Source: Trichoplax adhaerens (lineage: Eukaryota; Animalia; Placozoa). Taken from it: a stretch of 64,000 bases of DNA. The translations under genes were made by a program, and so were the position numbers. Below, piece by piece: positions 54,620 to 56,165 of the stretch (positions are counted from its first letter, which is position 1; the number at the start of each line of letters is the position of its first letter). Under the pieces are notes generated by a model that was given only the letters and a program-made list of their open reading frames with translations, did not search any database and had not been told where the DNA came from. The DNA is taken from positions 2,384,323-2,448,322 of the forward strand of contig NW_002060951.1 in assembly GCF_000150275.1 (NCBI RefSeq). Reading direction: 5' to 3'.

Positions 54620-54721
54620 CTCTCCTTTGCATAACATTTCTTGTAATTCAGCTACACGATTATTCCAAATGAGCCAATGTAATGGGAATTCCTTACTGGC
54701 CTTTTCACAGTTTTGAGCCAT
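54620..54721 (-). CDS. ANKRD13: ANKRD13-family exon 1 (start codon)
   Basis: ATG at 54721. Translation MAQNCEKASKEFPLHWLIWNNRVAELQEMLCKGE aligns to human [33 protein letters not shown]. Donor gag|gttagt. Confidence 0.8.
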
Positions 54722-55039
54722 CAGTGATGACGCCGGTGGGTCAGATTCTGGAGATGTACACACACTAATACGCTATTACTATATACTATAAATAATAATA
54801 AACACTCTAATATTTGGGCTCGTATCTTTACAGGATAGTACTGATTTACAATAAACGATCATAATCTTAATTATCAGTTAATAATGTCATTCTACAGATA
54901 CATAATGATATCCATGCTGTCTGCTATAGCGTAACTGGATGATATTTGGAGTGTTTAAGGAGAAATCTCTAACATCAGAGCAAGGGATGAACTTGAAAAA
55001 AATTTGTGAATGTCAAACTGCGGAATACTTTGTGAATGG

Positions 55040-55560
55040 TCAAACTGCGGAATACTGTACAGTGTACAGTACAATACTAACTACAGTACATACTGTACAC
55101 TGTACAGTACAGTACTGAAAAAAGCATTCGCTATTATCGTCATCGACGGTAGCCACGATACGACAGTCTCACTCGTTGCAGTTTGTATGAGTCACAGTAT
55201 GCCTTTTGCCTACCCGTTACGGTACTCTTGTTCGGCGTGCAGATTACTACGGTGGCCCATTACTGTACAGATTGCTGTACAGTACAGTGTACAGTACAAC
55301 AAGTACAATACTGTACTGTAAGCTGTACAGTACAGTACAATAAGTACAATACAATGTACTGTACAATGTACAGTGTACAGTACAGCACTCGATATGGCTA
55401 CCTGATCCTTGCTTGGATCATCATAGCGTAAAAAACCTACAGTACTGTACTGTACTGTACTGTACTGTACTGTACTGTACTGTACACCTGAAATTTCCAT
55501 TAGCGTGATTAATTATTGTACTGTACAGTGTACACTGTAGAAGAGCACCGGTGGTAAAGT
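55040..55560. repeat. (TACTG)n/(CAGTA)n array field filling the ANKRD13-POLR1C divergent intergenic region
   Basis: Includes (tactg)x8 at 55441-55485 and many palindromic junctions such as tgtacagtacagtgtacagtaca. ORF-track entries 55010..55321, 55183..55431 and 55210..55500 are artefacts. Confidence 0.9.
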
Positions 55561-56141
55561 AAGATCCATAAAATTACAATTTCATCAATACAAGTTCTAA
55601 TGATAATACGGTGACTTTTATCTGATAGACTTGAAATCATCGAAGTCTAAGATTTTAAAACTGTTTCAGCTGCATACTGCAGTAAATAAACCTGGTCCAG
55701 TCGAACTGTGCAGAACACATACTGTACTGTATAAAGGCACAATTTTTGTTAATAAACTGGCCAGTACGGATGCCGAATCAACTTTAAGTTCATAGTCTTT
55801 ACTTACTATATACTGCATGTGGTATGGCTACGCAAACAGCTCAGCTCCGGACTCGTGTTCAATTGGAAGAATACCAAGTTAAAAATGTTAGATACTGAAC
55901 TTATATATCAAAGTGTTAATTAAGATCATCTTTGTATCTGGAACTACGTGTATTAATAGATTTCCTGTAATTTATTACGCCTCTCATTACTTGTTACCGT
56001 TATTTCACTTTCTACTTATAACGTGTATAGTTCTTGTAACACATACATTATATGCGAATGTAGTAATGGCAATGCATACCAGAATGCAATGATTTCTAGT
56101 TTACAAATGCTCAATAATAATTTACAGATAGCAAGAAATAA

Positions 56142-56165
56142 ATGGTAGATGTCAATGAATTCAGA
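56142..56165 (+). CDS. POLR1C: POLR1C/RPAC1 exon 1 (tentative start, MVDVNEFR)
   Basis: The first ATG upstream of exon 2 that joins in phase through donor aga|gtagtt. Weak similarity to the human N-terminus (...[13 protein letters not shown]...). Confidence 0.4.

Follow-up and report, generated by a model that had tools for sequence, protein, structure and literature searches.

Pentanucleotides are the commonest class of microsatellites in Trichoplax adhaerens, and Wang, Zhang, Meyer & Bao (Wang et al. 2010, Biol Direct 5:18; PMC2871265) report that ACAGT accounts for 78% of them, with 54% at a distance of up to 1 kb upstream of a gene, and suggest a role of the motif as a binding site. Here we describe arrays of this kind in a stretch of 64,000 nucleotides of the T. 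adhaerens genome (contig NW_002060951.1; hereafter the window), with emphasis on the spacer between the divergently oriented genes ANKRD13 and POLR1C. The arrays of this spacer are probably one ordinary case of the genome-wide Trichoplax (ACAGT)n microsatellite, and as such an already known feature. They share with the published microsatellite (PMC2871265) the organism, the unit (TACTG, CAGTA and ACAGT being rotations or complements of each other) and a preferred position in the kilobase just upstream of genes. The window is of Trichoplax origin, as judged from its identity of 99.06% to a contig of Trichoplax sp. H2 and from a diagnostic residue that it shares with the POLR1C model TRIADDRAFT_59063; the spacer contains a perfect tandem run longer than 12 bp (in block 55438-55485, 9.6 copies at 97% matches), and its array blocks are no more than about 1 kb upstream of ANKRD13 and POLR1C.

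The published account nevertheless differs from what we see in this locus. Wang et al. (PMC2871265) treat the repeat as a plain microsatellite, and in the accessible text, where the string 'palindrom' does not occur, there is no description of a unit consisting of GTAC plus one A or T (GTAC+W), of strand-switching palindromes or of hairpins. Nor does that text describe length differences between the H1 and H2 genomes of Trichoplax, or a contrast between spacers that contain a 5' flank and spacers between two 3' ends. Our analysis therefore meets the signature microsatellite of Trichoplax again, at an ordinary promoter region, and what it adds includes the description of the unit as GTAC+W and a corrected gene start.

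Two further reports connect repeats in promoters to the three-dimensional genome of placozoans. Chimaera, a convolutional neural network (CNN) applied to Micro-C data of T. adhaerens, recovered 'repeating motifs ACGG and ACAGT' de novo and, in the accessible part of the report, describes gene starts as insulating in this organism (NAR 2026; PMC12817080). The repeated ACAGT motif of that model is the same as ours and was flagged as a sequence determinant of the predicted contact maps, but the association, as far as that part goes, is derived from the model and is neither locus-level nor causal. The loop-anchor motif of Mutator terminal inverted repeats (TIRs), with repeating ACGG (Kim et al. 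2025, Nature; PMC12221973), is likewise a lineage-specific repeat that resides in promoters and is tied to the placozoan three-dimensional genome, and POLR1C is a gene of the hub-forming housekeeping type. In the accessible text, however, that motif belongs to the terminal inverted repeat of a transposon, and we found neither such a repeat structure in our locus nor an enrichment of ACGG across the window.

Metazoan bidirectional promoters resemble the locus in having divergent genes, a housekeeping partner and a short spacer. Their transcription start sites (TSSs) are by definition at most 1 kb apart; here, the two start codons are separated by 1102 bp. Our spacer is AT-rich (37% GC) and lacks a CpG island, and the arrays also precede genes outside divergent pairs. 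The tandem repeats of yeast promoters are reportedly hypervariable and promoter-enriched as well, and their copy number is said to be able to tune nucleosome occupancy and expression, but most of them are AT-rich and non-palindromic. Self-complementary tracts are also found in unstable repeats that form hairpins or cruciforms (palindromic AT-rich repeats, CAG/CTG), in which the secondary structure promotes slippage and length change. In contrast to these, the (GTACW)n tracts are short, reaching about 250 bp at most in the window, as well as dispersed and promoter-linked, and no tie between them and chromosome breakage or disease is known.

The spacer between ANKRD13 and POLR1C

A first-pass annotation of the window had placed ANKRD13 and POLR1C head to head, separated by about 1.4 kb, with start codons at 54721 on the minus strand and, tentatively, at 56142 on the plus strand. 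The divergent layout is correct and so is the start of ANKRD13, since the H2 gene model, which encodes 638 aa and has the domains Ank_2 and ANKRD13_C, opens with the identical MAQNCEKASKEF; Ank matches from Pfam were also found in the window. The start of POLR1C has to be moved, as both the H1 and the H2 model put it at 55824. Residues 1-21 of the two models (MATQTAQLRTRVQLEEYQVKN), which by reading also align with the human N-terminus, give a 100% tblastn match to 55824-55886, and residues 22-45 are found downstream of an AG acceptor, at 56287-56358. Because exon 1 thus spans 55824-55886 and exon 2 begins at 56287, the ATG at 56142 is inside intron 1, and the spacer between the true start codons (54722-55823) is 1102 bp long; the 1069 bp that separate the H2 gene models agree with this after allowing for indels in the arrays. 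The annotation had named a POLR1C start in an exon further upstream as grounds for giving up its proposal, and this is partly what we found: the exon at 55824 is further upstream, yet still within the interval that had been flagged. The corrected start, as predicted from gene models and peptide matches, is a useful output of the analysis. The features of the locus are as follows:

54620-54721, minus strand: coding sequence of ANKRD13 exon 1, 34 codons (MAQNCEKASKEFPLHWLIWNNRVAELQEMLCKGE), with donor GT at 54619-54618; from peptide mapping and the H2 model
54722-55823, no strand: spacer between the divergent start codons, 1102 bp, GC 37%
55003-55056, plus strand: 27-bp direct repeat in two copies (TTTGTGAATGGTCAAACTGCGGAATAC), adjoining the first array on the left; from Tandem Repeats Finder (TRF) and a repeat search
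55053-55115, no strand: array block 1, (GTACW)n with strand switches; hairpin with a 19-bp stem, fold z = −3.87
55116-55260, no strand: unique inter-array island, 145 bp, 48% GC; fold z = +1.37
55261-55385, no strand: array block 2, degenerate (GTACW)n in six strand blocks; 10 bp longer than in H2, fold z = −5.03
55438-55485, plus strand: array block 3, near-perfect (TACTG)9.6 with 97% matches in TRF; 28 bp longer than in H2, fold z = −4.77
55517-55539, no strand: array block 4, short; 5 bp longer in H2
55720-55731, plus strand: 12-bp mini-array leading into TATAAAGG (55730-55737), 94 bp upstream of the POLR1C ATG, which is a candidate TATA box only
55824-55886, plus strand: exon 1 of POLR1C (RPAC1), MATQTAQLRTRVQLEEYQVKN, with donor GT at 55887
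55887-56286, plus strand: POLR1C intron 1, containing the ATG at 56142; acceptor TTTCTAG/ACA
56287-56358, plus strand: POLR1C exon 2, THTVDFPGAFHGYDDAWSLNSFRK

The array blocks add up to 261 bp, which is 24% of the spacer and 48% of the interval 55040-55560. The spacer had been described as made largely of palindromic arrays, and this interval as dominated by (TACTG)n/(CAGTA)n runs; the arrays and their palindromic nature are borne out, but 'largely' overstates their share. Perfect 7-mers of the unit cover 213 bases (19% of the spacer), a value equalled in just 3.8% of all 1102-bp windows, and TRF detects period-5 arrays at 55064-55115, 55277-55385, 55438-55485 and 55520-55539. Measured upstream from the start codons, the blocks lie at 285-771 bp for POLR1C and at 332-818 bp for ANKRD13, and about 285-330 bp of array-poor DNA adjoin each of the two start codons. 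Between the blocks, the island at 55116-55260 showed no match to Rfam, no excess of structure and no second copy in a self-BLAST of the window; a second unique stretch free of arrays is 52 bp long. The 18-nt core of the 27-bp direct repeat (GTCAAACTGCGGAATACT) has two matches in the window, both of them here, where 0.05 are expected, and the direct repeat could represent a pair of binding sites.

The composition of the island bears on one alternative to a microsatellite, namely that the arrays and this GC-rich segment together are the remnant of a transposon, a Mutator-type miniature inverted-repeat transposable element (MITE), that had landed in the promoter. Kim et al. 2025 (PMC12221973) describe insertions of Mutator elements in the promoters of housekeeping genes; the island contains four occurrences of ACGG/CCGT in 107 bp (55146-55249), and GGTAGCCA (55148) and TGGCTACC (55395) flank array block 2. 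Yet inverted matches around the 145-bp island reach no more than 8 nt, and 71 of 500 shuffles did equally well, so that terminal inverted repeats are not recognizable, ACGG/CCGT is not enriched across the window (197 observed, 185 expected), and the island is single-copy in the window. We consider a MITE very unlikely and rejected it.

It is more improbable still that the arrays code for a protein made of repeats or give rise to hairpin RNAs, for example precursors of microRNAs, which we also rejected. Open reading frames (ORFs) of 62-103 aa do cross the arrays, but such ORFs are automatic, because pure arrays are free of stop codons in all six frames, and the translations of the arrays (YCTVL/QYSTV repeats) have no match in Pfam. 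Covariance models of many microRNA families give weak matches as well; however, the Rfam scores do not exceed 35 bits, against gathering thresholds of 50-130 (34.9 against 100 for the best match in the spacer), and the sub-threshold matches are scattered over unrelated families and therefore reflect a generic resemblance to hairpins. In the whole window, nothing passes the gathering threshold of Rfam except a tRNA-Ile (30172-30244).

Repeat unit, self-complementarity and length variation

The ten most over-represented 5-mers of the window are all ten rotations of TACTG/CAGTA, at 2.4-4.0 times their expectation, and 2277 of its bases fall in perfect 7-mers of the unit, where Markov-1 simulations give 302 ± 40. 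There are 114 pairs of neighboring GTAC tetramers in the window that are exactly 5 bp apart, and the intervening base is T in 63 of these, A in 47 and C or G in two each. The repeat unit is thus the 4-bp palindrome GTAC plus W, where (GTACT)n corresponds to the TACTG form and (GTACA)n to the CAGTA form. It follows that a single change between A and T flips the apparent strand of a unit, from TACTG to CAGTA or back, and that the arrays are therefore mosaics of the two strands with strong self-complementarity. The A and T variants occur in clustered runs: of 50 adjacent pairs, 14 show a switch, where shuffling gives 26.5 ± 3.4. This clustering fits slippage of each variant, and the switches are common enough to yield mosaics. 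A minor register of 7 bp, GTAC+ACT or GTAC+AGT, is also present, and only 12 perfect chains of at least three units exist in the 64 kb.

The self-complementarity of the arrays exceeds what their composition would bring about. The DNA fold z-scores of the three spacer blocks were −3.9, −5.0 and −4.8, with none of 200 dinucleotide shuffles as good, and those of three arrays elsewhere in the window were −4.4, −6.3 and −8.2, again with none of 200 shuffles as good, whereas four non-array controls ranged from +1.4 to −0.65. Even the pure (TACTG)9 block still folds, by forming GTAC stems with T-T mismatches between them.

For length variation, we compared positions 45797-64000 of the window with the H2 contig NOWV01000083.1 (18.2 kb, 99.06% identity). 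The two genomes differ by 67 substitutions and 13 indels in this range. Seven of the 13 indels touch arrays and account for 90 of the 105 indel bases, with sizes of 5, 5, 10, 10, 15, 17 and 28 bp; three of the array indels (10, 28 and 5 bp) are within the ANKRD13/POLR1C spacer. Under a stricter definition, six of the 13 indels fall into the array zone, which makes up 4.7% of the sequence (p = 1.4e-5). Substitutions are enriched in this zone as well (8 of 67, where 3.1 are expected). The spacer arrays thus show length instability of the microsatellite type, and the differences in length, which are mostly multiples of 5 bp, point to replication slippage as their probable source. Since the arrays differ in length between H1 and H2, their copy number is not tightly constrained.

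Arrays of the same type also occur outside Trichoplax. An exact strand-switched array of 29 nt (GTACTGTACTGTACTGTACAGTACAGTAC) is present in 59 JGI metagenome contigs with a GC content of 34-62%, which show no resemblance to the window outside the arrays. Arrays amount to 49% of one contig of 2.7 kb and to about 1 kb in another one (L048). Several of the contigs look eukaryotic, with few long ORFs and with other microsatellites, and the identical ORFs that flank the arrays in several of them suggest a single host genome. The presence of arrays in unrelated contigs argues for a tendency to expand that is intrinsic to the unit rather than specific to placozoans.

Array position and the two proposed promoters

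To locate the arrays relative to genes, we used the H2 gene models for the range from 45.8 to 64 kb, and a reading of ORFs together with Pfam matches (RGS, RasGAP (NF1), SET, PB1+UBA, Cyt-b5, HNF-1_N, Mad3_BUB1) for positions 1-45796, complemented by tRNA and Rfam scans. The resulting statistics comprise eight spacers in one window, and the 5' end of the SETD8-like gene, the 5' end of the RGS gene and the 3' end of NF1 are approximate. Array coverage was as follows:

Six spacers with at least one 5' flank: 8.6-19.7%
Head-to-head spacer of CYB5D2-like and HNF1 (41411-41990, 580 bp): 19.7%
Head-to-head spacer of NF1 and SETD8-like: 11.5%
Two convergent (3'-3') spacers, 9.9 kb: 1.0-1.9%
Gene spans: 0-3.0%
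Positions −1000 to −500 of seven ATGs: 14.3%
Positions −500 to −250 of seven ATGs: 23.9%
Positions −250 to 0 of seven ATGs: 6.3%
Positions 0 to +250 of seven ATGs: 1.9%

The idea that other divergent pairs carry the arrays as well proved right for the two others in the window, CYB5D2-like/HNF1 and NF1/SETD8-like. The arrays are not specific to divergent pairs, however, because tandem spacers with one 5' flank carry them too (8.6-14.5% coverage); the association is with 5' flanks generally. Gene bodies and exons, like the 3'-3' spacers, remain close to background. The contrast with the convergent spacers supplies, at a small scale, a control for gene orientation.

These distributions are relevant to the proposal of the first-pass annotation that the arrays are part of a shared bidirectional promoter. 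Combined with the binding-site hypothesis of Wang et al., this would make them a multi-copy platform on which a transcription factor could act to drive the two genes. That the arrays are in upstream DNA shared by the two genes is correct. In favor of the proposal, the arrays sit halfway between two genes in head-to-head orientation, arrays in the window show a strong bias to 5' flanks and are present in all three of its divergent spacers, and Wang et al. (PMC2871265) suggest ACAGT as a transcription-factor binding site. A single shared promoter is not established by this, though. The arrays are in the middle of the spacer, more than 280 bp from either ATG, and the 1102 bp between the ATGs are at or past the usual limit of 1 kb between TSSs (PMC2648788, PMC2077898). 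The TSSs would be within 1000 bp of each other only if the two 5' untranslated regions totaled more than about 100 nt. Moreover, tandem spacers have arrays equally, the copy number of the arrays varies by up to 28 bp between genomes that are 99% identical, the same arrays turn up in metagenome contigs that are unrelated and eukaryote-like, and no animal factor that reads GTAC was identified in this analysis. Sequence-specific activity of the arrays as a shared promoter is therefore, in our judgment, unlikely.

The remark that conventional core-promoter motifs are hard to see in the spacer was accurate. TATAAA occurs there only at 54787 and 55730, and in the window its frequency is at chance level (168 occurrences, 185 ± 15 expected). 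We therefore rejected TATA boxes as evidence for core promoters and regard the two occurrences as candidates only. The stretches of about 300 bp of array-poor DNA beside each gene fit two separate core promoters.

The explanation that we favor over a shared promoter has three parts. ANKRD13 and POLR1C would each have their own core promoter, in the array-poor stretch of about 300 bp beside their ATG; the arrays would occupy the upstream zone between these two core promoters; and hairpin-assisted slippage would produce them in this zone, where they are tolerated. If the arrays have an activity, it is most likely a weak effect on local chromatin that tolerates changes in copy number, for example by keeping the DNA open or by forming a boundary between the promoters. 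For some measurable effect of the arrays on transcription or chromatin at this locus, we see the chances as about even.

Several points weigh against this explanation or limit its reach. Where the core promoters lie, and whether the arrays have a functional effect, are matters of inference; the statistics come from the eight spacers listed above, with three approximate gene ends. Wang et al. (PMC2871265), according to the accessible text, assigned each motif to the nearest downstream gene without a control for orientation. Promoters are insulating in T. adhaerens, and the CNN may have responded to arrays simply as markers of promoters; its result is not causal evidence. Finally, introns and 3'-3' spacers are equally non-coding and yet array-poor, so that weak selection alone fails to explain the 5' bias and a real function is not to be dismissed.

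An alternative is a neutral origin without any effect on genes. In this scenario, a hairpin-prone unit slips and expands in DNA that is open or negatively supercoiled, upstream of active and especially of divergent promoters. The arrays are hypervariable in length, enriched in substitutions, degenerate and endowed with a strong hairpin potential, and they occur and expand massively in unrelated genomes, all of which is as expected for such a by-product. Less expected are the 250 bp beside the ATGs, which are largely free of arrays, and the peak of coverage at a defined distance. Tandem repeats of yeast promoters reportedly alter expression (Vinces et al. 2009, Science), which also counts against neutrality. 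Furthermore, the motif is picked up by a model of chromatin contacts, according to the accessible part of that report (PMC12817080). We regard a purely neutral by-product as possible but on the whole doubtful.

At the other extreme, the arrays might be architectural elements, which extrude cruciforms or bind a dedicated protein and thereby serve as insulators or anchors in placozoan promoter hubs. Their hairpin z-scores reach −8.2, and their location between divergent promoters is one where negative supercoiling would be expected. In the accessible texts, Chimaera reports repeating ACAGT beside ACGG, the Mutator-associated insulation motif (PMC12817080), and promoter hubs involve about one third of genes (Kim et al. 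2025, PMC12221973). The same text of Kim et al., however, links loop anchors to the Mutator TIR motif (ACGG according to PMC12817080) and makes no mention of microsatellites (PMC12221973). We judge insulators or anchors to be improbable, slightly more so than a shared promoter. A related notion, that (GTACW)n is a promoter architecture encoded in sequence, with a GTAC every half helical turn that might be read by a protein or give rise to cruciforms driven by supercoiling, appears to us about as unlikely as a shared promoter, so that an architectural or cruciform role in either form would have to be called a long shot. If it were true, the zone upstream of genes that is picked up by Micro-C models would owe its open or insulating state to the arrays, and their fast change in copy number would tune expression. 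A genome that shows no CpG depletion would then have, in these repeats, an alternative to CpG islands: at a GC content of 33%, the observed to expected ratio of CpG in the window is 0.98 (1685 against 1720), and there is therefore no sign of depletion driven by methylation.

The locus has value for deciding between a weak chromatin effect and its alternatives, as it combines a short spacer, four array blocks, natural copy-number variants in H1 and H2, and the housekeeping gene POLR1C beside ANKRD13. A transfection protocol for T. adhaerens exists (PMC13276646). With a locus as compact as this, the 16-year-old question of a role of (ACAGT)n in promoters is therefore directly testable here.

Further observations in the window

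The POLR1C protein stitched together from the window scores far higher with 'RPAC1 [Trichoplax sp. H2]' than with any other animal, and no orthologue from Hoilungia or Cladtertia was among its matches. At the diagnostic residue (PKLFDNFNPG), the window sides with T. adhaerens H1 TRIADDRAFT_59063 and not with H2. At 58140-58340, this H1 model reads past a splice donor into ...FSPVGNNLYLLVW..., where H2 and other animals have ...FSPVATASYR...; the read-through is probably a mis-splice in the H1 annotation.

Arrays within genes (53827-54607, 42574-43857, 18566-22754) are skewed towards the 5' end: of the 537 bases that they cover in six genes, 267 are in the first quartile after the ATG. Between the SETD8-like gene and the p62-like gene, the tRNA-Ile(GAT) gene on the minus strand (30171-30245) has (GTACW)n arrays on both sides (30081-30140 and 30414-30536).

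The spacer at 32540-39864, 7.3 kb between the 3' ends of the p62-like and CYB5D2-like genes, has the lowest GC content of the window (28-31%) and almost no arrays. It contains no ORF detectable with Pfam on either strand and could hide a gene with tiny exons.

Three other repeats adjoin or accompany arrays. A dispersed repeat of about 150 bp, with 82% identity between its copies, is found at 25190-25345 (plus strand) upstream of NF1 and at 43410-43600 (minus strand) in an intron of HNF1, adjoining arrays in both places. At 3184-3398, a tandem duplication of about 105 bp (87% identity) is located beside an array cluster between the 3' end of NF1 and the RGS-domain gene. The third, at 60079-60613, is a tract of four copies of a 133-bp unit with 96% identity, in which a 45-bp sub-repeat contains a CCGTC...GACGG hairpin. 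This tract, which has arrays on both sides and is nearly equal in length in H2, precedes the BUB1 ATG (about 61819) by about 1.2 kb; it might be related to the published 'repeating ACGG' motif.

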